From positions 1-36,246 of IMG/VR virus record IMGVR_UViG_2703718820_000015: a stretch of DNA of 36,246 nt. One strand, written 5' to 3'. Position numbers and translations under genes: made by a program. Origin of the DNA: a virus. Lineage: Duplodnaviria > Heunggongvirae > Uroviricota > Caudoviricetes. This document shows positions 1 to 31,028 of this stretch, piece by piece; positions within the stretch are counted from its first letter, which is position 1; the number at the start of each line of letters is the position of its first letter. Under the pieces are notes generated by a model. The model ran no database searches and was not told the origin of the DNA. It saw nothing but the letters and a program-made list of their open reading frames with translations.

Positions 1-387
1 TCACTTCAGCGGGTAGTCATCAAACTCACCATAACGAGCATCGTTAATGATGTATGTGATTACGCCAAATATCGCATCAGGGCTCGTTCCGTCATCGTGC
101 AGAGGTATAGCTTCCCTTCTTCCTGTCTGCAAATCTTCCAGGTGAACCTTGGGTGATTTGCGGTATCGCTTAATCCTCAGCTCACCTTCCATTCTGCAAA
201 CAAGTAATGAGCCGTCGCATGGTGATAGCGAAGCATCCACAACCAGCAGCGCGCCATTCAGGATACCTTCCCGGTAGTGCGTCGCACCCGCTCGCATGAA
301 GTACGTTGCCGCTGGCCTGCTTATGATGCACTTGTCGAGCGATATGCGCTCTTCAACGTAGTCTTGTGCTGGACTCGGGAATCCCAT
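1..387 (-). CDS. UmuD'-like S24-family protein lacking the cleavable N-terminal arm (HumD-like)
   Basis: 128 aa; begins MGFPSPAQDYVEERI, which aligns with E. coli UmuD from Gly25 (the start of processed UmuD'). The GDSM catalytic-serine region is replaced by GATH; a Lys aligning with UmuD Lys97 is retained. SD GGAGGTGA precedes the ATG at 385-387; stop is at 1-3. Confidence 0.7.
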   Translation of the reverse strand: MGFPSPAQDYVEERISLDKCIISRPAATYFMRAGATHYREGILNGALLVVDASLSPCDGSLLVCRMEGELRIKRYRKSPKVHLEDLQTGRREAIPLHDDGTSPDAIFGVITYIINDARYGEFDDYPLK

Positions 388-404
388 AACTCACCTCCGA
401 TGGA

Positions 405-424
405 TACTGTATATTAATACAGCA
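405..424. promoter_or_regulatory. LexA (SOS) box TACTGTATATTAATACAGCA
   Basis: Fits the CTGT-N8-ACAG consensus exactly and closely resembles the E. coli umuDC box as recalled; lies about 18 bp upstream of the UmuD'-like start on the opposite strand. Confidence 0.7.
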
Positions 425-1656: not shown

Positions 1657-3582
1657 TTAGGCAGAAATATTCACAATCCCCCATGTACTTCCATTCCACA
1701 CCCATTGGACAGTAGGGTCGGAAGGATATGTTGCTGGAGATGTTCTGTAGGACACCAAGCCGATTGGGAAAGAACCTGTGTTCTCTGTCACAGTAGGCTT
1801 TGCGCTAGATCTCATTTTTACTTTCTCCCATCCGCAGAATACTGGAAGAAAGGTTCCGTTATACGGGCTAAAATACGCTCCTCCAACATAAGCGCTCATT
1901 CCGGATTCAACTGTAATCCTTAATCTGTATGCTTTACTTTTGTCGTTGGTTGGCGCTGAAACTTTGTATAACTTCCACCCTCCAACACCCATATCGTAGA
2001 ACTTATTAACTGACATATAGATGGAATTAGTACCATCTTGGGCTTCTATAGCTATCTCAAGTGGTGTGTCGCCTTTAAAGTAAAAAGCTCCACGAATGAA
2101 ACCTGTCTGTGTTTTAGTTAAATTTAGGGTTATTCTGCAACGTTGAGATGCGTTAGTGACTCCAAACCATCTACCGCAGCCAGATGGTTCATTAGGGTCA
2201 GAACCAACCTTTCGTTCGTTCGGTATAATTAAAAGGGAATAGTCAATAGGTGCTCCGTAGACTCCATCAATAACCGACCAATCTCCAGAAGGGCAAAGAT
2301 TAGAACCGGAGACACTGAACGTATCTCCTCCCTGTGCGCCTGCTGTAGGGTCTGTCCCTAATATGGTATTCATGGGGCTCATGGTTGAGGCCCAGTTACC
2401 ATATTGCACACGCGCGCCAAGTATGGTCCACGGCCCACGTATTTTCCCATTGCCCGTAACCTCGCCATACAAACCTATCACAACATTATGCTGATTTGGG
2501 GTGCTATTGTTATAGAGCAAATAATCGCCGCTTCCCGATGTGTCAAGACCTATAAATGTGTTTGCGTTCCCCTCATACGGAGCACCGGTCTGGCGACTAA
2601 AACCCGATCCAGTTATGATCAGACCACCACCGCAAAGCTGCTCAAATGTATTTTGATTTATAGATCCATCAGAGATGTCAATTATGAATCTGCCACCACC
2701 TGACGTAGTACCTGTTTTGATGCGTACAAATTGATTCCAAAAACTCCCGCCACCCCATTCAACCAACCCAGGCAGAGTGTATGCGTCTGATGATAAAAAT
2801 CTTATATCGCCGGTCGTATCAATGTTCGAGATAATAGAAAACTGTAGCCCTCTAATGTATAACGATTTACATGAAAGGCCAGTTACATTTATAGATTTAC
2901 TATGAAGGATTAGGAAATCCCCGTTAGGGATTCGGCCAACACAATCAACGTTACAGCGGATCACAAAGCGACCAGCAGAAGCATGAATGCCAGTCAGCTT
3001 GGTCATATCAACGACATAATCGCCTGGAGGGATATGCAATGATTTTCTGTTTTTCCCATACTCAACTAATTGTGAATAATCACCGTTAGCATAATCCAAT
3101 GCCTCACACAGTTTAGCAGTAACATCTGTACCATCCGGGAATACTCCCCATCCACGCACGTCTAAATCATCACGCCAGCGAGAAATCTGCAATGCGGGAT
3201 ATTTGGTTGCCCCATCAGGGTCTTCAATCTGCTGCCTTAACTGATCTGGGTCGTACTTCAGCACATTAGGAAAATAGAACTGCTGCGCACCATATGCATC
3301 ATAAACAGCCATAGAGTGGCCTTGCACAGTTACGAACTTGGCAATCTGTCCGTTATATACCGGATATCCAGCAGCATTAATGATGATTGGTTGCGAAACA
3401 GGAACGTGAGAGCCGTCTTCGTTCTCTATATAAACCTGAATCTGGTTTTCAGGATTTACCGGGTCAGTGTCAATTTTACCGATATAAATTTTGCCATTGG
3501 CTACGGCTTTAAAAGAACGAGCCATAGTGAAGAGTTGCGAAGGCATACTCACTACAACATTGGCATTTATTGAATCTGTCAT
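1657..3582 (-). CDS. Tailspike protein (P22 gp9-type head-binding domain plus receptor-binding domain)
   Basis: N-terminus [47 protein letters not shown] matches the conserved P22-family tailspike head-binding domain. Start moved to the internal ATG at 3580-3582, which has a GGAG SD; ORF-track start at 3618 is rejected. Confidence 0.9.
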
Positions 3583-3638
3583 TTGATTTGCTCCAGATAC
3601 AAGGAATGGCCGCAGCATGGCTACGGTGAATTTTGGGC

Positions 3639-5192: not shown

Positions 5193-5524
5193 GATTTCTA
5201 TCACTGTTCTTGTTAGCAGTTGTCTCTTCTTCCAGTGCTGAGCTGCGCGAGCTTCAAACGGGTAATGACCTTCTTTACAACATTCAACAAGGTAAAAAGG
5301 GTGATGATTTTTCATCGCTTTACATTACTGGATATTTGCGCGGAGTAACTGACTCATTGATACTAATTGGTTCTCTATGTCCTCCTGATGGCGTTGACAT
5401 GTATCAATACACCGATATCGTTGAGAAATATCTAAACAAAAACCCAGAATCAAGAAATGAGAGCGCAGTTATACTAACAGCCCTAGCAGTAGGAAAAACA
5501 TTTCCGTGCAAAAAGAATCAATAA
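5189..5524 (+). CDS. Secreted/periplasmic protein of unknown function (signal peptide; mnt-coupled)
   Basis: 111 aa; N-terminal MRFLSLFLLAVVSSSSA signal peptide; start ATG overlaps the mnt stop (ATGA); AT-rich; occupies the slot where P22 has sieA. Confidence 0.6.
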   Translation: MRFLSLFLLAVVSSSSAELRELQTGNDLLYNIQQGKKGDDFSSLYITGYLRGVTDSLILIGSLCPPDGVDMYQYTDIVEKYLNKNPESRNESAVILTALAVGKTFPCKKNQ

Positions 5525-5539
5525 CAATAAGGGCTTAAA

Positions 5540-5929
5540 ATGAAATTGATTATAGCAATGGCTTTCCTTGTCTTCTCGTTTTCTGTCTCAGCAGAGTGCT
5601 GGGTCGTTGGGGATATGCACGGAATAAGCTATTCAGAACGAAATAATTTTCAACCGGAAGAAGATGGTTTTAGTGGAACATTCATCATTAAGACAAACGG
5701 TGAAGATGCCAGTATCACATATTCTGGGACGGATGCGGGCGGCATGGCTTACAAAGCATTGTCTAAAAACTCCATCATTGGAATCGGCGCGAATGGCGAA
5801 ACTCAACGAGTTATCGACTCATGGGTAATACATCCTAATGGAACAGTTTTAATGTCGAAAACCATTTCTGGTTATGGGAATATGGATTCAACCAAAGCTT
5901 TTATTGGAAAAGTAAAAAGAAAATGTTAA
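5540..5929 (+). CDS. Secreted protein of unknown function (signal peptide, Cys near both termini)
   Basis: 129 aa; MKLIIAMAFLVFSFSVSA signal peptide with VSA/E cleavage motif; AAGGG SD; AT-rich; directly follows the previous gene. Confidence 0.6.
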   Translation: MKLIIAMAFLVFSFSVSAECWVVGDMHGISYSERNNFQPEEDGFSGTFIIKTNGEDASITYSGTDAGGMAYKALSKNSIIGIGANGETQRVIDSWVIHPNGTVLMSKTISGYGNMDSTKAFIGKVKRKC

Positions 5930-5953
5930 CGATTGAATCCAATTACCCATACT

Positions 5954-7795
5954 TTACTGCTGTGTTGCCTCAGTAGCAAGCAGCGGCCTGATGGCATTTG
6001 CAGCGTTACTCAACGCTCTTTCATAGGCTGGTGTTCCTGCTTTGGTGTTTGCCAGACGTAAGAGCGCATTCCTTGCTGCTTTGGACTCATACAAGCGCAT
6101 CATTGCACCGAAACCAGCCTCAATCCCCATTGATACGCCAAGAGTCGCAGTTGCGCCAATCGTCCTTATCCTGTTGGCTTGTGATTGCCCAGTCTGAGTT
6201 ACTACATTTGCGGTGTCTGACCTTGCTGTTTGCTGTAGAACTTCATGAAGAGCATCAAGCTCTTTCATGTGCTTTCCAGAAAAAATAGTGTTGTAAATTT
6301 CACCGCCTGACTGAGATTTCAGCTTATTAACTTCAGTGATGAACTTGGCTGGAGAGTCCCCGGCCTTTTCCGCTATTTTGCTGACGTAAGCTGCACGCAT
6401 AGCATCTTTCCCCTTATCATCCAGTGCGCTCCAGATTCGTTTCACGTCAGATGGTTTTCTGCTTAATACAACGGTATTTATAAGTTCAGGACTGGCTTCA
6501 CTGCTTGCCTTGTTGAGCTTGTTGGCAATGTTTTTATTAAGCACCTTATTATAAACGTTTGCATAATCGGAATTTGCTTTAAGGTATTTTGCTGCGTCTG
6601 ATGCACCGAGGTTTTTAGCAACTGCGTTACGAAGGTCTTTTGACATTGCATTCTCTACCATATTGGTAGCTGCTTTTGCCTGGTTGGGGAAGACCATAGC
6701 ATCTCCCTGAACATTAGATCTAAATGCTGTTCTGTGCTGACGCAAGAGATCAAACGTAACATCCAAATCAGTTGCAGGGTTTGCTAATTCTTCACGTAGG
6801 TTACGCAAGGATGTAAGCAGGCTTTGATTGGCAGACGTCCCAAGCCGTTCCTGTCTTGCGATCGCTGTATTCAGAGCATTCATGGTATTTGTGGTATCAA
6901 CTGCGGCATTACCCATTTTATTGGTGACGTCATTGATAACAGCGCCAGCGGCATCCTTCCGCCCCCTTAACGTGGTGGTCAGAGATTTCACCACATCATC
7001 CGGGTTGTACTCACCAAAACGCTCAAAATAATTACTTACCAACTTACTCCGCGTTGCATATTGCTCTGCCCTTTTACTGCCAGTTCCAAGAATGGCCCCC
7101 TCAGCATCCTGAGTAAGACCACGAGTGAAAGCATTTTTCGGCTGGATAACATCAGATGTCATTGGTGTCACGCCCATCGATTCTGATGTGGCAATTTTCT
7201 TCGCCACTTCTGGCGCAATATCACCTTTTATAGCCGTTATTCCACGCCCTATTCCCTTTGCTGCTGCGGAAAGAACACCCTGAGCGGCAAGGTTAACTCC
7301 GGCATTTTTAGCTGCATTTTGTGCGAAATCGCCTTTCTGATTTGCGGCCTCTGCCAGTGATCCAATAGCCATGCTTCCTGCCGTTCCAACTCCTGGAACT
7401 AAATACCCACCAATTGTTTCACCGGCTTGCGCGTAGGGGTCTGTCGGTCTGTCTACTGGACGATAAACATCATCCAAAACCTTGGGTCCACCAAGCCCCT
7501 GACTGATTGCATTAATCAGACTTGCGCCGCCCTGCAATACGTCAAATGGTATGTTTACCAGACCACGACCAGCCTGTTCTGCAATTTGCCCTGCACTTTG
7601 ACCACCAGTGAGCCAATCGCCAGCTTGTTGCATCAATGATGGTTCTTCACGTGCTGGTTCATTGCTATCCTGGCTGACAGTTTGTTGCTGAACAGACTGT
7701 CCAGCAAAATACTCATCAATGGCAGATCCAATATCTTCCGTGCTCGTACCATCAGGGAAGGTAAATGTCTTACCGTTTGCAGTTACTTTCATCAT
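5954..7795 (-). CDS. DNA-ejection (injection) protein, P22 gp16-like
   Basis: 613 aa, Ala/Gly/Gln-rich, last gene of the late operon in P22 order (P22 gp16 is about 609 aa). Confidence 0.8.
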
Positions 7796-9207
7796 TCCAC
7801 CGTAAATTGAATGCCTGATTTTGAGGTATATGATCCAACCTGATTCCGTGGTTCTCCTGAAGGTGTCGAATCTTGCGCTGGTGCTGCGTCAGTATTCATT
7901 GACATATACCGCTTAACGGCACTCCCCAATGATTCACCTTTTTTAACATCCAACCCCAATATCTGACCGCCATTACGCGATTGTCCAGGGTTGCCATTCG
8001 CGCTCATCCACTCGGCTTTAAACTCATTAAACTGCGCGTTTCGTCGCTCAAGGTTTGCCATTGCATCAAGCCATCTTGCGACCGTCTCAGGGTTATCCAT
8101 GTCAGTTGGTGCACCCTGACGAACGATCTCAACGTCTTTATCCGTTGCGGGGCCGGGAGGTAGGAATTTAAGAACCTGACTGTTAACAAGGGCATTTTGG
8201 CGAATGCGCAAATCACGCAATGTCGTATCGCTTCCGGTAAGTTTTGCGAACATGTTCTGTGCGTTACCGAACAAACCTGTCGTTGGTTTTTCTGCTCTGA
8301 ACTGTTGAGCAAGCGCACTCATAGAATTGGCTGAGTTTGATGATGCTGTGGCATTGTTTACAGCCGTCTCGATGCCTTTTTCCATGTTTACTGACAGCTT
8401 AGGTGCTTCGCTAATCAACTGCTGAGCCTTTTCCTGCGCTTGCTGCATCTTAAACCCGAACTCTTGCTGATCCAGAGCCAAGCGTTGTGCTGCGATATTG
8501 TGCCCAGTCATTGCTGACTGATAGGAAAGGTTTTGCCCTCTCGCCTGAAGTGCTTCTCCAGCCTGATTGCTGCGGATTGTCTCTGCCAGTTTGCCTCGGT
8601 CAATTTCACGACCAGCCATCTTGTCCTGAACAGCAAACGCCTTTTCTGGTCCAAGCGCACCGAGAGACATAGTAGTCAGCATGTGTGATAGCTGCTCTGG
8701 ATTCTGGATACCTGTCTGAATCATCCAGTCAGCATTCGCCCCCACGCGATTTAACCTGTCCTTGTTGTCAGTAATGAATTTACTGTAGGCTTCCGGTCCC
8801 TGGGAAAGAGCGACGTTAGCCCTCATGGCTAAATCGCCCATATCGTTGCGTTGCTGCTCATTAAGACCGGAAAACGCCTGTTGTGCCTGTGCAACAAACG
8901 CTGGATTTTCCTGGGCAAACTTAAATAGTCCAGATGGATCACCAGAAGCCCATGCATCAGCGTGAACCTTATTGAACGCACTAATAGCTTTCTGTTGCTG
9001 TTCCTGATTGTAAATATCAGCAACTCCAGCCAGACCACGTAACGCGGTCAGACCAATGTTATTTGCACCTGAGCGAGCCAGTTCATTGTTTTCGCGGATC
9101 AGACCAAGCGTTGCGTTAATGTCGCTTGCCTTTGGCGCATTCTCATTTTGCGTACCGATGCCAGCCAGAAAACCACCAGAATTAATACCCTGTTGCCACG
9201 TAGCCAT
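7792..9207 (-). CDS. DNA-ejection protein, P22 gp20-like
   Basis: 471 aa, same length and position as P22 gp20; start overlaps the downstream gene's start region. Confidence 0.8.
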
Positions 9208-9217
9208 TGATTACCCC

Positions 9218-9910
9218 TTAAAACAACGAGCCAAGCAGACCAAGACCGCCGCCGATCGCAGCCCCCCACGGAGTTGATGAACCAATTAATTTCGCAAGTC
9301 CGGCCCCAGCAATAGCACCAGACGCACCTCCGCCAATAGCAGATTGCATTGCTGATGGTCTGTTGGCATTTGCCGCTGCAAGAGCCGCACTTTGCTGCGA
9401 AATCTGACTCATATTGTTGGCATATGTTTGCCCGGCGTTTGCCTGACCTTGCAGTGCGCCAAGACCAATATTTGCCAGATTCTGGTAGTTGTTCATCTGA
9501 CCAGATAGCCATTGCTGACCAAGCGTTGGTGCGATTGTTGCTAACTGATTACCGGTTGCAGTGGAACCCAATCCACCTGTTGCTTCCGCTGCCGCCAGAC
9601 TCTGATAACGAGCCTGACCAGCAAGATCTTTGTACTGCTGAGAGTTGTAATACTGGTTAAGTGCCTGACCTTGCCCTTCCAGAGACGATAAGTTCTCGAG
9701 GCTGCCGACATACTTATCAGCCAGAGGAGTAAACGGCTTCAGGTTGTTCATGATGGTGTTGAACTGCTGATTTTGCAGGTCTGCTGCATACTTCTGAGCT
9801 TCTGCGGCATACTTTGCGCTTTTATCAGAACTGCCACCTTTCCCACCCTTTTCAGGGCAATAAGGTTCCTCGCCGCGCAGTTTTCTGCCCAGCTTAAATG
9901 CATATAACAT
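9218..9910 (-). CDS. DNA-ejection protein, P22 gp7-like
   Basis: 230 aa (P22 gp7 is 229 aa); Gly/Ala-rich C-terminus; correct synteny. Confidence 0.8.
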   Translation of the reverse strand: MLYAFKLGRKLRGEEPYCPEKGGKGGSSDKSAKYAAEAQKYAADLQNQQFNTIMNNLKPFTPLADKYVGSLENLSSLEGQGQALNQYYNSQQYKDLAGQARYQSLAAAEATGGLGSTATGNQLATIAPTLGQQWLSGQMNNYQNLANIGLGALQGQANAGQTYANNMSQISQQSAALAAANANRPSAMQSAIGGGASGAIAGAGLAKLIGSSTPWGAAIGGGLGLLGSLF

Positions 9911-9912
9911 GG

Positions 9913-10371
9913 CTATCTCCCGTGATTCAGGAAGTCGATTAGTTCTTCGCGTGTGGCGCTGTAAAAAGTCACGTCATCCACGCCTTTGAAGTATTTCTTG
10001 ATGGTTCCTACACGCTTAAGGCCAATCATTGCGCAGTACATCTGCCCGTGGCGGAATTTGCGCGCAGCGAACGATGTGACACACTGAACAGTGGTGTTAG
10101 TCAGAATGTATCGCCAGAACGCCAGCCCGATTTCCTTGCTGAATCCACGAACCTCTGGCAGGTACATGGCGTGGCAATCGAATGTCAGCGGCTGAATCTC
10201 CTGATAGTAAACAATGCCTCCGAACTGCCCGTGCACGTTCACCTCGAAGTAACGGCATTCAGGCTTGTAGTCGTATCCATCACCGTTGTTGCTTCCGGCA
10301 ATAATGTCAGGGTGATTTCCGACTGCTTCGATCAGGTCGATGTTTCGCGTTGGTTTGAACTGAATCATCAC
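9913..10371 (-). CDS. P22 gp14-like virion assembly protein
   Basis: 152 aa, between tail needle and gp7 homologs as in the P22 map. Confidence 0.65.
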
Positions 10372-11216
10372 TGCTCCGCGATTATCTTGATGGTTGTGGC
10401 AGTAAACGCCGCACCATTTGACTGAATGGTTAACGTACTGCCATTTGTGGCAAGAAAGCCGTCTTTATCCACGCTGAAGAACGTAGCTAACAGGATGTTG
10501 TCGGTTGCTGTCGCCGAGTTACGACTGCTTACCAGTGTGTCAGGAACAGAACCGGAAAATGTTAGCTGCATTGACCTGTTGGCGGTTCCGCTGGGCCACT
10601 TCCCGACGATCGACAGCTTGAAGAACAAGGTTTTGTTCTCGTTGAACACAACCATCTTGTTGTTAACGGTGTCGAAGAATGGTGTCAACGTGCCGGATGA
10701 CGGCGTGAGCGTTTTCAGCAGGCTAACAAGGTTGGTCGGCGCTGTCGGGATGGTTACAGATACGCCAGAGTAAACAACCTCTGACTTTTTGCGAGTAGTG
10801 GCATACTCCAGAGCATCGATGCGCGTTTCATGGTCTGAAACCTGCGATTCCAGCGACTGAACTCTGGTATCAAGCGAGGCAATATCGCTTTCATTCTGAG
10901 CTATTCGTGTTTCATGTTCCTGAAGAGTTGATTCTGCCTGGCTGATTCGCTCCTCATGATTAACAAGCGTTGCTTCCGCAGCAGAAATTCGCTGCTCATG
11001 GTCAGCGAGAATCACATCCTGCTCATCGTTCCTGACCTGTGCATCATAAGCGCCCTGTCCGGCCTCGTTGGCCTTGTTAGCCACGTTACCAACATCAGTG
11101 CCCTGTGCGATAACGTAAAGCAGATACGACTGCGAGAAGATATTGCGTGGAAGGACTGATGTGTCGAGCCGTGTAGCCTGAATGATTACCGGCACATTGA
11201 GATTCGAATCAGCCAT
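10368..11216 (-). CDS. Tail needle protein (gp26-like, Sf6-type with C-terminal knob)
   Basis: 282 aa; long heptad-repeat coiled coil ([51 protein letters not shown]) followed by a beta-rich C-terminal domain. Confidence 0.85.
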
Positions 11217-12634
11217 TACTCAATCCTTATCTGAGCACCAGACAGAGTGACAGGTGACTTCGTGATAACGCGCAATTTGAAGCCAACATTTTTCCTGATG
11301 CGCCCGACTCGCTTCCACAAAACACGTTTGTCATAAACGAACGGTTCATTTTGCTCAATCATCTGCTCACGCCCGTAATTGATGCCGTCAGTGGTTGCAG
11401 AGAGAAAAAGGCGGTCAGCATACTGCGCAACGCCAGTTGAAGATTCAACTTCAAGGTCGAAAACTCTGGCGTTATCCGCTTTGAACAACGGAGTAAACAG
11501 CAGGTGTTCCTGTTGCTTGTCGTACTGGCTGCTGATATCGAACTGCAATTTTCCTGTCATCGATTCAAGCTTATCGCCGCACGTTATCTGATTGCCTTCG
11601 TAAATGAAGTCGATAGCGCGGTACACATCGTCATACAGGCCTGTTTTCAGTACGCACCATTGCGGACCATTGGCGCTTGAAGATGCGTCGTACACGAGAA
11701 CATGGCGCGGAAGGTGGATAATCAGCAACTCATGCGCATCAAACCGCAGCGATTCCATCACGCCATCAGCCAGTTCATCAGCAGTGTAGGAGCGGAGGAT
11801 TTTCTCAATGCTCGCGCTGGCGATTGGTGACACCTGACCGGATCCGATGATGTACACAGACGGCGCACCTGTTGCAGGATTGCTGATGAACGCATAAGAA
11901 TCAGCAAACGGCGTTTTGCAGTAGGTTCCGGCGATTCCTTTTTGCACCATCAACGATGGCTGGGCGACATACAAAGCGGCACCAACGGTGGTTGCACCAG
12001 TCAGGGAGAAATATTCAATCGTCGATGAACCAAAGCAGACGATGAAGTCTCGCCATGTTCCGATTCCGATGATGCCGTCCGGCTGAGACTCGGCACGATA
12101 TTGTGCACTGTAGCGGTCAGGATGTGATTCGTCTTCAAGGTCAGTGATGAACCATGAATCAGTGCCATCTTTTGACCACGCATAACGCCCACGTAAGCGA
12201 GTAATGTCGCGAACAGAACCTAACTCATACTGCGTGAATCCGCTGTCCGTAGGCCAGTTTGAGACGGTTTTAACCGTGCCATCATAGCGATACTCGACCA
12301 GTTGACCATTAACGCCTACCGCCTGTGATGTCCGACCATGCGCCATTGATACGCGACCACTTCCGGCAACATCACCGACTTCACTTTCTCCTTTGTACAG
12401 CTTGCCACCACACACGCGATAAACAGCATTCTGCGCCATGTTGTACTCGACGCCTCGCGATACTCCGTTCACATCAGAACGTTTGGCAATGCCCGGGAAT
12501 GAACGAAGATATCCGCTGCTGTTAAGGATTTCTTTGGGTGTAGCCAACATATTCACTGGCAGATAGTCGATATAGTCAGCGTTTCTAAAGTCTTTGCCGA
12601 CACCTTTCATAAGCGGAAGTTGCTGAATCGGCAT
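11216..12634 (-). CDS. Tail hub / head completion protein (P22 gp10-like)
   Basis: 472 aa starting [48 protein letters not shown], matching the P22 gp10 N-terminus as recalled and its length. Confidence 0.85.
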
Positions 12635-12643
12635 TTATTCACC

Positions 12644-13105
12644 TCACGTACTCGGATCATCTTTCTCGATGTAAAACCGATTCCACGTAAACGCGCTTTT
12701 TAACCCCGCACCGCGAGGCATGTCATTTCGTCGCTCAAGTGGTGGTATTTTGGTTAAAGCGATACAGATTGTCTGATATGCACTGTCAGCAGCGGTAAGG
12801 AGAGCGTCTGACGGCTGAATGACGTTATCCATGCACACTTGCACAGCGAGTTTCAAAGCGACGCCATCATTTGCCCATGCAGGGATACCTGAATCATCGT
12901 CAGGTAACGGCATGATGCCGTTTTCTGTATCAGCAAACTGATATCCAAGCTCGATACCTTTCGCCTGCCATGCTGCCATCATGTCTTCGAGGTCATTAAT
13001 GGCATCTTCAATTGCCTGAGGGTCAGCATCTGTCAACGTGGCATTGGAATACAGCCCAGCTTTTCGTAAAGCCTTTAGAACGAGATCACCCTTCGTTTTC
13101 GCCAT
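12644..13105 (-). CDS. Head-tail adaptor (P22 gp4-like)
   Basis: 153 aa; immediately upstream of the gp10 homolog in gene order. Confidence 0.75.
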   Translation of the reverse strand: MAKTKGDLVLKALRKAGLYSNATLTDADPQAIEDAINDLEDMMAAWQAKGIELGYQFADTENGIMPLPDDDSGIPAWANDGVALKLAVQVCMDNVIQPSDALLTAADSAYQTICIALTKIPPLERRNDMPRGAGLKSAFTWNRFYIEKDDPST

Positions 13106-13274
13106 CTTCTTCCGCCTTAGCCACTTTTTGCTTCGTTGCGGTTTCTTCAGGAGTTTTCACCCAGCCTTTTTTCAGGTGAGATTTAACTTCTTCGTCATCA
13201 ACAATGATGTAATCGACAGCAAACTGACCACAGGTGATCATGTTGCCAGGCTTATAGAGCATTGTTCGTACCAT
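13086..13274 (-). CDS. Small protein between coat and adaptor genes (Sf6 gp6 position)
   Basis: 62 aa from the ATG at 13272-13274 with GGGAGAAG SD; ORF-track start at 13313 falls inside the terminator hairpin and is rejected. Confidence 0.5.
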   Translation of the reverse strand: MVRTMLYKPGNMITCGQFAVDYIIVDDEEVKSHLKKGWVKTPEETATKQKVAKAEEDGENEG

Positions 13275-13284
13275 TGTCTTCTCC

Positions 13285-13310
13285 CAATAAAAATGGGGCC
13301 GAAGCCCCAC
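13285..13310 (-). terminator. Intrinsic terminator/attenuator just downstream of the coat gene
   Basis: GGGGC-UUCG-GCCCC hairpin with a UUCG tetraloop followed by AUUUUUAUU on the minus strand. Confidence 0.6.
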
Positions 13311-13315
13311 CAAAA

Positions 13316-14569
13316 TTACTGCCCGGCAATAACGATGCCCGTATATTCAGGAACCAGTACAGAGCAACCGTACAGAGTGGTGAAACGTGCAGTGGTTACG
13401 CCTTTGATGTGGTCGAAGGCGTAAGACATGATCAGCGTAGCGCCCTGCTCGGTGGTTGCTGTCATTACCTGTGGACCCTGACCAGTCGGGAACGCCAGTT
13501 TGCCGTACATCAGTTCAACAGAACCATCAGCCCAGAACAGGTTAGCCGGTGCGGCATTTTTGTTGAGAATGGTGATTGCTGCGCTACTTGCCGCATTAGC
13601 ATCAACGTTTGCATATGGACGGCTGGCGACATCCGCGTTGTCAGGCGGCAGAATTTTCGGGGAGATAGTTACTGTCGTTCCGCTAACTGCCAGAACGCGG
13701 AATACCTGCGGCTGCCCGGTGGTATCTTTGGTGATCTGGTGTACGGAATTCACCCCTGCGATGGTAAACGCATCGCCAACCTGCAAACCTTCAGCAGATA
13801 CCGTAATGGTCCCCTGTCGGTTATCCACTGGCATTTCGTTAGCATCTTTCGCTTCAACCTTGTGCGCAGGTGCTGCTGCCAGCGTAATGGAAGTTGCTGT
13901 ACCCTTCGGAACACGACCAGAAATATCGGTCTTGTAGCTATCGAAGGACGCAACCGGAGGGATCTGCGCTTTTTCGTATGCTGTCAGGGTTGCGCCCTGA
14001 GCATAGGCACGGTGACCAAGCTCGCCAGCAAGGTCTTTGTAGTTGAAGGGGTTCCAGAAAGAGCGGCGGTTGATACCCTGTGGTACACCAATCGCCGTCA
14101 TGGTGGCATCAATACCTGCCGCACAGTTCCACAAATCACGGCCCTGTGAACCAGTGGTTGAGTCAGCCATTGTGATCACGTTAGTAGCACGCTGCGTGAC
14201 CATGGAAATCAGGTCAGAGTCAATCTGTGCAGCAAGGCGCATACCTGCGGCGCGACCAGCTTCAGTTTTATGTTCCGGGTCACGCATTTCACGCGCATCC
14301 AGAGTGTACAGAATGTTTTTCGGCTCCTTGAACACAGAAGGAACAAGGCGCTGAACCAGTGCTGTTGGCGTTTTGCCGCTGAGGTCTAGGCCTTCCTCAA
14401 TGTTCATGTGGTAATGCTGCGGACGATACAGAACATCACCTGCTCGCTGCATTGCTGTATCACCGGGACGGAATTTTTTAGCGTTACGGGAAACTACGCA
14501 GGCGGCCTCAAAGCCTTCAACGTAGTTTTCGAACATGATTTCAAGGTCTTTTGCTAATTGGTTAGCCAT
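13316..14569 (-). CDS. Major coat protein (P22-like family, Sf6/CUS-3 branch)
   Basis: 417 aa following the scaffold gene and preceding a terminator; size and position as for P22-like coat proteins. Confidence 0.85.
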   Translation of the reverse strand: MANQLAKDLEIMFENYVEGFEAACVVSRNAKKFRPGDTAMQRAGDVLYRPQHYHMNIEEGLDLSGKTPTALVQRLVPSVFKEPKNILYTLDAREMRDPEHKTEAGRAAGMRLAAQIDSDLISMVTQRATNVITMADSTTGSQGRDLWNCAAGIDATMTAIGVPQGINRRSFWNPFNYKDLAGELGHRAYAQGATLTAYEKAQIPPVASFDSYKTDISGRVPKGTATSITLAAAPAHKVEAKDANEMPVDNRQGTITVSAEGLQVGDAFTIAGVNSVHQITKDTTGQPQVFRVLAVSGTTVTISPKILPPDNADVASRPYANVDANAASSAAITILNKNAAPANLFWADGSVELMYGKLAFPTGQGPQVMTATTEQGATLIMSYAFDHIKGVTTARFTTLYGCSVLVPEYTGIVIAGQ

Positions 14570-14587
14570 GTTTAATGCTCCGATAGG

Positions 14588-15481
14588 TTATTTTTTTGCC
14601 TTTTTAGCGGCGAAATACGGCGTCCAGTCACCAGTTTCCAGCGCCTTGGCTTTCAATTTGCCGAGGTTGTTGATTACTGCGCCGTTGCTCCCCTTAACTG
14701 TCGGGGTTGTGGCTGCCGTGGTTTTTGCTTTTGGCATGACTCTGGCCTTCGATTCGATACGTTCCAGCAGACGACCAATTGCTACGGGGTTGGTAGCTTC
14801 TGCCAGTTGCTTGCGCAGTTCAGCGTTGCGACCGAGCGCCAGAACAACGATTTCCGGCTTCTCTGACTCAAACAGGATCGCGTTTTGTGTCTCGATGGGG
14901 ATTTCCTCGAGTACGGCCTGTTCTGCTTCCTGATAGCCAGGAACTTTGAGAGCCTTAACACGTTGCTGATATTTGGATAATCGCTCTTGATAGGCAGCCT
15001 GAAGCTCCTGCTCCTTCTGCTTGCGAGCCATCTCCTGTTGCTGGTACTTGCCGTTATCCTCTGCCCACTTAGCCATGCGTTGCTGGTAGATTTCTTCATC
15101 GAAACCGATGTCCTCATCATCCAGTTTTGGCATTCGCGGTGGTTGAGTTATTACCGGCTGCTGCTCGACGGGTTTCTGAGACTGACGCATCAGCTCTTTC
15201 AGCTCGCGGTCTTTCTCTTTAATCGTCTTGCGCAGGTGTTTTACCAGTCCATGCTCTGCGCCATCTTCGCTGGTTGGCGAATCCAGCTTTTCGTCACCAA
15301 AGTAGAATTCCTGTTCTGATTCGTCGTCATCAGTTTCAGTAGCTTCCTCTGCATCATTGCCGGAGGACTCACTGCCATCTTCTGTTTCGACTTCTTCAGC
15401 CAGTTCGACATCATCAGGAATCTGCTCTGACGCGTCGGTTTCGATTTCAACTTCTGGTGTGTTTTCTGCCATCTGGTCCAT
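14588..15481 (-). CDS. Scaffolding protein
   Basis: 297 aa; highly acidic N-terminus, Gln/Lys-rich helical middle, basic C-terminus; between portal and coat genes. Confidence 0.85.
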   Translation of the reverse strand: MDQMAENTPEVEIETDASEQIPDDVELAEEVETEDGSESSGNDAEEATETDDDESEQEFYFGDEKLDSPTSEDGAEHGLVKHLRKTIKEKDRELKELMRQSQKPVEQQPVITQPPRMPKLDDEDIGFDEEIYQQRMAKWAEDNGKYQQQEMARKQKEQELQAAYQERLSKYQQRVKALKVPGYQEAEQAVLEEIPIETQNAILFESEKPEIVVLALGRNAELRKQLAEATNPVAIGRLLERIESKARVMPKAKTTAATTPTVKGSNGAVINNLGKLKAKALETGDWTPYFAAKKAKK

Positions 15482-15571: not shown

Positions 15572-17770
15572 TTACTGCTGTGGTTGTTGCTGAGTTGATT
15601 TTTGCAGGATGCTGCTGATGTCCATGCGCTGCGCATGACCCTGTGCCTGACTTTTCAGGACAAGCTCTGCATCAGCACGGGCATTGTCTCCTTGCTGTTG
15701 CTGGAACTGTCCGAGCAGTTTCAGAGCCTCGCGGATATCAGATTTCTGCTGGCTATCGGCAGATGCGAGGATTTTCACAACGTTTGCCGCTGCAACCTGA
15801 GCATCAGTCTGTGCCTGGAATGCTTTAACCTGAATGGCTGCCTGTTCGTTCTGCGCTTTCTGCAATTCAGCCTGACCAGCAAGAAGCTGACCTTGCGCTG
15901 CAACCATAGCCGGATCTGGCTGACTGGCCTGTTGTTGTTTCGCCTGCTCAACCATTTGCTGTTCTTCAGGCGTTCTCGGCTTGATAACGCCAGACAGAAG
16001 CAACTGATTGCGGTTGTATTCTTTCAGGTCGTCCATCCCTTCGCCGTCCATATTGTCGAGAATCATCGATGATACAAGGTCATGCTTCGGCGTTCCTGGC
16101 GGGATAAGTGCCAGCATGGAAAGTAACGACTTAACCGTTGCATCACGGCGAGTAGCGAACGACTGACCGACATCGACAGTCACTTCATAGTTACCCTGCG
16201 AAAGGTCGTTAAGCGCGATAACCTGCCCTGCCTGACGGTCAACCACTTCACCAGTCATCAGCGCCACGTCATCGCTGCCATCCTCATTAACGATGCGCAT
16301 TGGCGTATCGCTGCCATAGACTTCACGAGCCATAGAAAGCCACACGACGCCAGCACGGCGCATGGATTTAGCCATGTTGTCCATGTAGATATAGGACTGC
16401 GTGTCCATCCGGTTAAAGATGCTATCAACGGTATCGGTGGCGACGTTGCTCGGCATGTTCTCAAGCTGCGACGCACCTGTAATTTGCTGAATAGCCGTTC
16501 CGGTGTACTGCAATAGCCCGGCAAGAGCTGGAGGCATTTGTGTCGAAGGCGTATAACTGCTGACCTGAGCCTGCGCAGTAATATCTCCGTTTTTGTTTTT
16601 CAAACTGACCATCGGCAGGAACGCCGGGCGCTTTTTGTTGCGCTCCGCCCAATGAGTGGCAAGAGGACCAGGAATCATGTCAACATCAACTACAGGAATG
16701 CCATCGCCGCCAGCCTGAGTAGCGTTATCTGCAATCATGGAAACCATCAGGTTCTCAAGACGCTGTGCATCCATCGCTTTTGCTGCGTGGCCTTCGATTC
16801 GCTCCTGATTATCAACAAATGAACGACGCCCATATACCGGGATGAGAGGAATATGTTCGCCCGGAATACGCTTCGGTTCTTCCAGCCATTCAGCGCCAGA
16901 CAGAAGACCGCAATAAACTCGGCGTTTCTTCACCGTTCGCTCGCCAATCAGTTCGAATGCACCATCGGTCAGCTCGTCGACAATATCTTTGATTTGCTCT
17001 TCATCATAGATTGCCGTTTCTCCGCTGACAGGGTTACGCCATGCTGTGAGCTTCACCTTCTCTATGCGGACTTCGTAGTAGCGTCCAACATAGATGGCAT
17101 CTGGCGTTGACCAGTCATATTGAGTGCCAGTGTCATCACGAGAAAGGCTTGCCGCGATGGAATCAGGGTATTCAGCCTCGAACGCTTTAGGCGTCATGGA
17201 GAACATTTCCATAGCCCACATGGCATCAGAGCGGTCATATTGCTTGCTGTCCTGATCGAAGAAGACGCATGTCGCTGGGTCGTAAACAGGAAGAAGGCTG
17301 ATGCGTCGCTGCTCGTTACTCGGATCCATTTCATCTTCGTAATCGGCACACATGCGGAAACAACCGAATCCGCCCGTTACAGCATCATCAAATGCGTTAT
17401 CACACGCTTCGCCACCGGATGTTTCCTGATAGTCAGCGCGGAATTTGCCGTTCATCTTTTCGGCTAACGCTTCCGATGCCTTGTCATCCTTCGGCCTGAA
17501 TTTAACGCTGATGCGATTCTGTCGATACTCGCCAATGATGCGATCACATTCACGGGCAATCTTATTCAGCTCAAAGCGCGGGTAATGCTCAAACCTGCCT
17601 TCATCAAATGAGTAACCAGCGTTTGTGCTGCCTTCCCACTGTGCGCCGGACACCCGGACGAAACGTTGAGCCTCAATAATCTGCTCACGCATATCCTTCG
17701 TTGCTGACCAGGCATTATCAAAGTTGCACAGCACCTTGCGATGCCAGTCAGTCATCTTTTTTTCAGCCAT
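15572..17770 (-). CDS. Portal protein
   Basis: 732 aa; conserved stretches such as GEHIPLIPVYG and TAWRNPVSGETAIYD align with the P22 gp1 portal as recalled. Confidence 0.9.
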   Translation of the reverse strand: MAEKKMTDWHRKVLCNFDNAWSATKDMREQIIEAQRFVRVSGAQWEGSTNAGYSFDEGRFEHYPRFELNKIARECDRIIGEYRQNRISVKFRPKDDKASEALAEKMNGKFRADYQETSGGEACDNAFDDAVTGGFGCFRMCADYEDEMDPSNEQRRISLLPVYDPATCVFFDQDSKQYDRSDAMWAMEMFSMTPKAFEAEYPDSIAASLSRDDTGTQYDWSTPDAIYVGRYYEVRIEKVKLTAWRNPVSGETAIYDEEQIKDIVDELTDGAFELIGERTVKKRRVYCGLLSGAEWLEEPKRIPGEHIPLIPVYGRRSFVDNQERIEGHAAKAMDAQRLENLMVSMIADNATQAGGDGIPVVDVDMIPGPLATHWAERNKKRPAFLPMVSLKNKNGDITAQAQVSSYTPSTQMPPALAGLLQYTGTAIQQITGASQLENMPSNVATDTVDSIFNRMDTQSYIYMDNMAKSMRRAGVVWLSMAREVYGSDTPMRIVNEDGSDDVALMTGEVVDRQAGQVIALNDLSQGNYEVTVDVGQSFATRRDATVKSLLSMLALIPPGTPKHDLVSSMILDNMDGEGMDDLKEYNRNQLLLSGVIKPRTPEEQQMVEQAKQQQASQPDPAMVAAQGQLLAGQAELQKAQNEQAAIQVKAFQAQTDAQVAAANVVKILASADSQQKSDIREALKLLGQFQQQQGDNARADAELVLKSQAQGHAQRMDISSILQKSTQQQPQQ

Positions 17771-30041: not shown

Positions 30042-30257
30042 TTAAGCGGCTTTGTGTTCCGGCGGGAACACGTCATCAAGACTGACTTTTGCGCCTAACT
30101 TGTTTAGGCACTCAACAAGAGCACGGCATGTTTTAAGGTCTGGGAAGCGACGACCAGATTCCCAATGTCCGATAGCTCCCTGTGTGCATCCAACTGCCTT
30201 AGCAAGTGTTGTTTGAGAGATATTCAGTGACTCTCGATATTTTCGTAGGTTGCTCAT
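30042..30257 (-). CDS. cro: Cro-like repressor (HTH XRE family; not lambda Cro)
   Basis: 71 aa MSNLRKYRESLNISQTTLAKAVGCTQGAIGHWESGRRFP...; GGAGGG SD; divergent from cI. Confidence 0.85.
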   Translation of the reverse strand: MSNLRKYRESLNISQTTLAKAVGCTQGAIGHWESGRRFPDLKTCRALVECLNKLGAKVSLDDVFPPEHKAA

Positions 30258-30368
30258 ATGCCCTCCATAGTAACCATGAAGCAATAATACGATATGTACT
30301 TTTAGAATGCAAACAAAAAATACATCTTGTGCATGGATGATTTTAGTACAGAGCGTAATAATAAGGGT
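30258..30368. promoter_or_regulatory. OR/PR/PRM region
   Basis: Minus-strand PR (-35 TTGCAT, 17-bp spacer, -10 TATTAT) with a 16-bp operator-like site AAGTACATATCGTATT overlapping it (30286-30301); a second related site near 30341-30356; plus-strand TAATAA -10 just before the cI ATG suggests a leaderless PRM transcript. Confidence 0.6.
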
Positions 30369-31028
30369 ATGAAAATGAAATGGTATGAACTGGCTAGATC
30401 CAGAATGAAAGAGCTCGGCATAACTCAAGAGAAGTTAGCTGAAGAGCTTGGTATGACGCAGGGTGGAATTGGTCACTGGTTGCGCGGATCTCGTCATCCA
30501 TCTCTTGACGAGATTGGTGTGGTGTTTAAATACCTTGGTATTGATAACGTCTCATTCAACCACGACGGTACATTTTCACCTGTTGGCGAATACTCATCTG
30601 CCCCCGTTAAAAAACAATATGAGTACCCTGTTTTTTCTCATGTTCAGGCCGGGATGTTCTCGCCTGAGCTTAGAACCTTTACCAAAGGTGATGCGGAGAG
30701 ATGGGTCAGCACAACCAAAAAAGCCAGTGATTGTGCGTTCTGGCTTGAAGTTGAAGGTAATTCCATGACCGCGCCAACAGGATCCAAGCCAAGCTTTCCT
30801 GACGGGATGTTAATTCTCGTTGACCCTGAGCAGGCTGTTGAGCCAGGTGATTTCTGCATAGCCAGACTTGGTGGTGACGAGTTTACCTTCAAGAAACTGA
30901 TCAGGGATAGCGGTCAGGTGTTCCTACAGCCACTAAACCCGCAATATCCAATGATTCCATGCAATGATAGCTGTTCCGTAGTAGGGAAAGTTATCGCCAG
31001 CCAGTGGCCTGAAGAGACATTTAGTTAA
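30369..31028 (+). CDS. cI: CI-type prophage repressor: heterologous HTH N-domain fused to a lambda-like S24 C-domain
   Basis: From [20 protein letters not shown] to the end the protein matches the lambda CI C-terminal domain as recalled; the N-terminal HTH domain is unrelated to lambda CI. Start is either 30369 or 30375. Confidence 0.9.

Follow-up and report, generated by a model that had tools for sequence, protein, structure and literature searches.

What does a UmuD-like gene do at the very edge of a prophage, when its product begins with the residue equivalent to the first residue of UmuD', no umuC gene lies beside it and the neighboring gene modifies the O antigen? The question is raised by the first 387 nucleotides of the window, i.e. 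the whole 36,246 nt stretch of viral DNA that was analyzed. The humD coding region occupies positions 1–387 on the minus strand. It starts with ATG and encodes 128 amino acids; its stop codon takes up positions 1–3 (the frame is read from 387 to 1). The product begins MGFPSPAQDY and reads MGFPSPAQDYVEERISLDKCIISRPAATYFMRAGATHYREGILNGALLVVDASL...INDARYGEFDDYPLK over its length. A Shine-Dalgarno sequence, GGAGGTG, can be read directly at positions 392–398 of the same strand, 4 nt before the ATG, and is kept in the copies of Enterobacter phage Ecl_MII_001 and of the E. coli prophages. On the plus strand, positions 1–424 carry short open reading frames of 30–46 aa, and an Rfam scan of positions 1–1700 yielded a chance match only (E-value = 0.78).

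The family to which the protein belongs is clear. The NCBIfam equivalog model NF051876, "HumD family translesion DNA polymerase", gives 207.3 bits against a cutoff of 120 (E-value = 6e-62), with residues 1–127 of the 128 matching profile positions 1–128 of 129. The protein is not a member of the UmuD subfamily model NF007621 (84.7 bits, under the cutoff of 110), nor of the lexA model TIGR00498 (28.3 bits, cutoff 110.95). Peptidase_S24 is the one Pfam domain found (E-value = 1e-8), and the PHROG match is to "UmuD-like protein" (E-value = 3e-47). LexA and the lambda cI-type S24 repressors share this fold family (E-value of about 1e-5 for LexA chains), but the window HumD, unlike these, lacks a DNA-binding domain, a cleavage site and the catalytic Ser. 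A reading of the gene as a truncated repressor was rejected on the basis of the S24 domain standing alone and of the low lexA model score.

A tblastn search of phage genomes shows identities of 83.5% with N15 gp26, 74% with HK140, 71% with P1 HumD and 68.5% with phiKO2 gp23. The N15, phiKO2, HK140 (gp28) and HK639 (gp28) proteins, with identities of 62–83.5%, all have the same length as the window HumD. The sequence-only reading had noted a resemblance to P1 HumD (AAQ14073), and this proves to be true family membership, given the model score, the 71% identity over 99% of the length and the same arrangement of LexA box and start codon. The two also share the MGFPSP start, the absence of a linked umuC and a C-terminal extension (NDAR.GEFDD.P.. 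in P1), with the LexA box 17–19 nt before the ATG. They differ in that P1 HumD displays ADSH, with a Ser, where the window protein has GATH, with a Thr, and ends in CPVI where the window protein ends in YPLK. GATH is found in N15 and HK140 as well.

The window protein is identical to RefSeq WP_024207724.1, which carries the HumD family name in one of its two annotations. E. coli strains DAM and NCTC9038 have copies that match the window gene exactly, in coding DNA as well as in protein. Comparisons with relatives of at least 62% identity give dN/dS values of 0.07–0.22, with dS running from 0.7 to >2 and synonymous sites almost saturated; for the two most distant phages dN/dS is 0.25–0.46. The humD product is under purifying selection. 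By every sequence-level defining feature the window gene is a HumD family member, and its family can be assigned with near certainty. Gene, protein and family were all previously known, and this is an ordinary HumD member whose identical protein is already named in RefSeq.

The N-terminal end is that of a protein processed in advance. E. coli UmuD (PDB 1umu, 1ay9, 1i4v) has a 24-residue arm with cleavage at Cys24/Gly25, a dyad of Ser60 and Lys97 and an adjacent umuC gene, whereas the window HumD is without the arm, the site, the Ser and the umuC. When aligned with solved UmuD and UmuD' chains (1umu, E-value = 6e-19; 8gmt, residues 25–136), Gly2 of the window protein falls on the Gly25 with which UmuD' begins, and the homology spans window residues 2–117 (E-value = 6e-19). 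The reference UmuD sequence was verified against the K-12 genome. The initiator Met occupies the UmuD Cys24 column in 119 of the 122 aligned sequences, and among the 120 closest representatives of 90% clusters, 109 begin with MGFPSP; the few longer close relatives are cases where an in-frame upstream start has been called. For the window HumD no upstream start with a cleavable arm is possible, as the frame is closed 5′ of the ATG. The structure-chain alignment and the closed frame thus bear out the earlier claim of a start at the Gly25 equivalent and of a missing cleavable arm. Lacking both arm and cleavage site, the window HumD has no need of RecA-stimulated self-cleavage.

The active site has changed also. 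Where UmuD shows A-S-G-D-S-M the window protein shows A-(gap)-G-A-T-H and is one residue shorter, such that Ser60 is replaced by Thr36 (codon ACG) while Lys97 is kept as Lys73. Among the 120 closest relatives (122 aligned sequences) Thr is the majority state of the Ser60 column (98 sequences, against 21 with Ser and 3 with Ala), and the Lys97 column holds Lys in 118 of the 122. An exhaustive search of 50%-identity cluster representatives gave 101 mid-length matches, 46 of them pre-truncated, and these were compared with 51 full-length sequences. The segments equivalent to Ser60 in these representatives were read by eye; the multiple alignment placed the window His, not the Thr, at this position. 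In the pre-truncated representatives the segment is essentially free (GATH, ADSH, GETI, SEPQ, ANTY, TGQA, DAHY and others) and the Lys97 position is filled by K, R, C, V or L. The full-length representatives keep the Ser in 39 of 51 and the Lys in 43 of 51, and display an A/G or C/G cleavage site. Decay of the dyad is also found in individual phages: at the Lys position HK639 has Met and Pantoea phage G19 has Ala, and in Aeromonas phage pAEv1818 both residues differ, with Gln in place of the Ser and Arg in place of the Lys. HK639 has therefore lost a Lys that the window protein retains. These comparisons support the view that the dyad is dispensable in the pre-truncated clade. The suggestion that GDSM had given way to GATH in a protein for which self-cleavage is dispensable is upheld, the dyad being decayed in the pre-truncated representatives and mostly kept in the full-length ones. 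The motif change is real, but it is a conservative one (Ser to Thr, with the Lys kept) and P1 HumD still has its Ser. Taken alone, the state of the close relatives might point to a retained pair of hydroxyl and Lys, but the wider clade speaks against catalysis.

Upstream of humD there is a predicted LexA operator (SOS box) at positions 405–424, TACTGTATATTAATACAGCA on the plus strand and TGCTGTATTAATATACAGTA on the minus strand, separated from the ATG by 17 nt (positions 388–404) that include the Shine-Dalgarno sequence. The CTGT-N8-ACAG core is perfect, and 17 of the 20 positions match the consensus TACTGTATATATATACAGTA. The sequence-only reading had described a perfect box about 18 bp upstream; the box, its perfect core and closely the distance stand, but over the full consensus the match is not perfect. 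The box is the sole match in the 36 kb window, where the core alone is expected 0.38 times, and a 20-mer with three or fewer mismatches was found in none of 100 dinucleotide-preserving shuffles of the window. Its uniqueness and the absence of any match in the shuffles indicate that the box is real and not a chance occurrence.

Conservation of the box extends across the family. A CTG-N10-CAG box is situated 14–44 nt before the start in eight of nine phage homologues, i.e. in P1, N15, phiKO2, HK639, Ecl_MII_001, BTP1, Aeromonas pAEv1818 and Pantoea G19. Its position is kept in spite of diverged flanks in P1, N15, phiKO2, HK639, Pantoea G19 and the Aeromonas phage, and each of the six E. coli prophage copies that were inspected has it exactly 17 nt from the ATG. 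HK140 alone shows no box in the 150 nt before the start codon; its humD directly follows another small gene. The GenBank records of P1 and phiKO2 annotate LexA sites at the homologous spot, and humD has been described as a LexA-regulated SOS gene (PMC9603915).

A putative humD promoter is situated at positions 419–448 on the minus strand, with a −35 element TTGATC (443–448), an 18 nt spacer and a −10 element TGCTGT (419–424) that falls in the first LexA half-site. The assignment draws on conservation and on analogy with the K-12 umuDC upstream region, which reads TTGATC-N17-TACTGT, the TACTGT forming the first half of its SOS box; the window differs in its 18 nt spacer and in TGCTGT. A scan of positions 388–522 for consensus sigma-70 promoters called none. 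LexA bound at 405–424 would cover the −10 element. The copies in NCTC9038, BTP1 and Ecl_MII_001 have TACTGT in place of TGCTGT. The polymorphism is at window position 423, which is position 2 of the LexA box and the conserved A of the putative −10 element; the window and DAM carry TGCTGT, and the otherwise identical NCTC9038 carries TACTGT. The TGCTGT variant could weaken the promoter, and hence expression, without destroying the LexA half-site.

A partner gene was sought next to humD. The sequence-only reading had attributed the missing umuC to the edge of the window and had proposed a look to the left for a umuC- or dinB-like gene, but the explanation fails. In matching E. coli chromosomes the humD stop codon leads into some 87 nt of phage DNA, then the 13 nt sequence CGTAATCGTGAAA and the host gene dacD, with no umuC. 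The 13 nt sequence recurs at the other end of the prophage, within the 5′ end of sbcB (the copies at the strain DAM locus are at 7902–7914 and 17654–17666), and is a candidate att core. In HK140 the annotated attP spans the same stretch, just past the humD stop codon. This placement would put the start of the window about 100 bp inside the dacD-side prophage end. Fourteen distinct homologous loci were inspected, and in none of them does a umuC gene adjoin humD. The gene is thus an orphan, carried next to the attachment site of a P22-like prophage whose place in E. coli is between dacD and sbcB. Of 5426 complete E. coli genomes, 5423 contain a host umuC; with a near-universal host gene a partner is available to HumD, as it is to P1 HumD.

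Other phages retain parts of humD at comparable places. In BTP1 the remnant is a 28 aa open reading frame with the LexA box intact (BTP1 locus 1501–1800). Sf101, mEp234, EC.P3 and several Stx2-converting phages carry C-terminal humD fragments only, beside their att ends. Such frequent decay in related phages shows the gene to be dispensable.

The other side of humD is formed by a serotype-conversion region, as the sequence-only reading had stated. An O-antigen acyltransferase gene (Acyl_transf_3, phage O-acetyltransferase) at positions 523–1620 on the plus strand is divergent from humD and shares with it a 135 bp intergenic control region; a P22-type tailspike gene follows at 1657–3618. This setting differs from those of the relatives. 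P1 humD is found in a plasmid prophage beside phd-doc and is divergent from lxr, and the N15, phiKO2, HK140 and HK639 genes follow tail-fibre genes. HK140 humD, unlike that of the window, is near a dinI homologue. The same arrangement of humD and an O-antigen cassette is found in BTP1 and in an Enterobacter phage. At the dacD-sbcB site itself the cassette divergent from humD varies: strains 1506 and PI6 have gtrA-gtrB-gtrC, FDAARGOS_1277 a polysaccharide deacetylase and the window the acyltransferase. This suggests that O-antigen cassettes are swapped while the adjacent humD/att module stays fixed. In 537 of 5426 complete E. coli genomes, or about a tenth, the first 1.7 kb of window sequence has a match. 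DAM and NCTC9038 possess a humD-acyltransferase segment identical to that of the window, but elsewhere their prophages (DAM, 9741–14918; NCTC9038, 5265–7657) are broken by IS1, IS30 and IS3; the P22-like structural region of the window, by contrast, is intact.

The shared control region shows a further similarity. Positions 423–493 are 79% identical to the regulatory region of phage P22 gtrABC, and GATC sequences at 430–433 and 443–446, 13 nt apart, correspond to the promoter-proximal P22 pair, GATC3 and GATC4. In P22 these lie in the OxyR(C) half site of a Dam/OxyR phase-variation switch (PMC2909390). The distal GATC pair of P22 is absent from the window region, and the LexA box and humD are in its place. 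Given the P22 likeness and the missing distal pair, the acyltransferase promoter is probably of the gtr type with half of the switch lost. The GATC pair forms an imperfect palindrome, TGATCGAC-N3-GCCGATCA. The predicted −35 elements of the divergent humD and acyltransferase promoters overlap back to back (TTGATC, with the GATC at 443–446).

Taken as a whole, the locus very probably encodes an SOS-controlled, pre-activated UmuD' analogue that serves the host UmuC. The functional steps for this particular allele are somewhat less certain than its family identity. In the lysogen, LexA would hold humD off, following the precedent of P1 HumD. DNA damage would activate RecA, LexA would cleave itself, and HumD would be made. 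A HumD dimer would then combine with host UmuC, itself SOS-induced, to give a pol V-like translesion polymerase, skipping the slow processing of UmuD to UmuD'. The same RecA signal is expected to inactivate the S24-type repressor of the prophage. This repressor, of the cI/C2 type with HTH_3 and a full Peptidase_S24 domain (233 aa), is encoded in the immunity region at 30327–31028 on the plus strand, and a divergent, Cro-like HTH protein at 30042–30428 on the minus strand. The window therefore carries two proteins of the S24 fold, the repressor presumably cleavable and HumD pre-truncated. Loss of the repressor together with production of HumD would mean a rise in translesion capacity during induction of the prophage on damaged DNA.

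The functional precedent is that of P1. P1 HumD, the family prototype, can reportedly take the place of UmuD' in SOS mutagenesis that depends on UmuC (McLenigan et al. 1999, J Bacteriol 181:7005). A note in the P1 GenBank record states that HumD "functionally complements E. coli UmuD'". The record of UmuD' substitution exists for P1 HumD alone, the sole tested member of the family, and the window HumD differs from it at 29% of positions, the Thr for Ser and the YPLK ending among them.

Two other readings of the gene bear on the evidence for its active site and its conservation. The Thr36/Lys73 pair might make the window HumD an active S24 peptidase that cleaves UmuD, LexA or the phage repressor in trans. 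Cleavage of the UmuD type can occur between molecules, and close relatives have Ser or Thr in 119 and Lys in 118 of 122 sequences while the neighboring residue is free. Across the wider pre-truncated clade, however, both positions of the dyad are unconstrained (HK639, Pantoea G19, the Aeromonas phage and the cluster representatives), and in the window protein the Gly-Asp-Ser-Met context is gone with one adjacent residue deleted. On these grounds the reading was rejected as highly improbable. It is also conceivable that the open reading frame is a decaying, functionless umuD remnant beside a fortuitous LexA-like palindrome, since clear remnants do occur in related phages (BTP1, Sf101, mEp234, EC.P3 and the Stx2 phages). 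However three independent E. coli genomes carry the same 128 aa frame, unbroken, the dN/dS values of 0.07–0.22 indicate constraint, more than 100 full-length cluster representatives exist, and the box lies at a fixed distance and is never matched in the 100 shuffles. With an intact frame, purifying selection and a conserved box, this reading was also rejected and has next to no chance of being correct.

A third reading concerns the C-terminal end. HumD proteins carry an extension with the consensus NDARSGEFDDCPVM that has no counterpart in UmuD, which lacks an acidic tail. The window form, NDARYGEFDDYPLK, spans residues 115–128 (encoded at 4–45). The extension is among the best conserved parts of HumD; an alignment of 46 sequences with a mean column identity of 77% shows no variation at E121, F122, D124 or P126. 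It is confined to pre-truncated proteins: of the 50%-identity representatives, 18 of the 46 pre-truncated ones carry it and not one of the 51 full-length ones does (Fisher p = 1.7e-7). The tail consensus GEFDDCPVM can be compared with the tip of E. coli SSB, MDFDDDIPF, the SSB-Ct motif having been described (PMC5872125). The length from F-D-D to the C-terminus is the same, charge and hydrophobic end are alike, and distant members end similarly in ...GEFDDTPF and ...FEFHDNLPF. In an AlphaFold model built from the 46-sequence alignment, of low confidence with a pLDDT of 58.6, the tail shows low pLDDT, which fits a flexible tail although the model is weak and gives no structural backing to the readings of the protein.

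These features would suit a protein whose main job is to modulate replication or recombination proteins by way of the acidic tail EFDDxPxx, as opposed to UmuC-dependent mutagenesis, for example by docking on or competing for the proteins that bind the SSB tip, by acting on RecA, or as a UmuD-like checkpoint factor. Against this, the complementation of UmuD' noted in the P1 record suffices as a function. The likeness to SSB-Ct amounts to three identical residues plus charge and hydrophobicity, with the Pro shifted by one position, and a literature search gave no link between the HumD tail and SSB-Ct. The window protein ends in Lys, a misfit if the motif requires a hydrophobic residue at its very end; its ending GEFDDYPLK is a minority form, with YPLK in 7 of 120 sequences and also in HK140, and CPVM or CPVI elsewhere. 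As a main function this is quite unlikely, and it is at the same time compatible with the explanation of HumD as a UmuD' analogue. A related idea, drawn from the sequence comparisons and unlikely though conceivable, is that in losing the arm the HumD clade gained an invariant, probably flexible acidic tip, which may dock a HumD-UmuC complex onto the readers of the SSB tail or compete for them. If true, the YPLK allele of the window would be a natural variant with altered docking.

To return to the SOS-controlled UmuD' analogue that would serve the host UmuC, the consequence for the host is that lysogens of this prophage would carry a second supply of UmuD' that is free of processing. With this extra supply, mutagenesis after DNA damage could become stronger or set in earlier, also under antibiotics that induce the SOS response.
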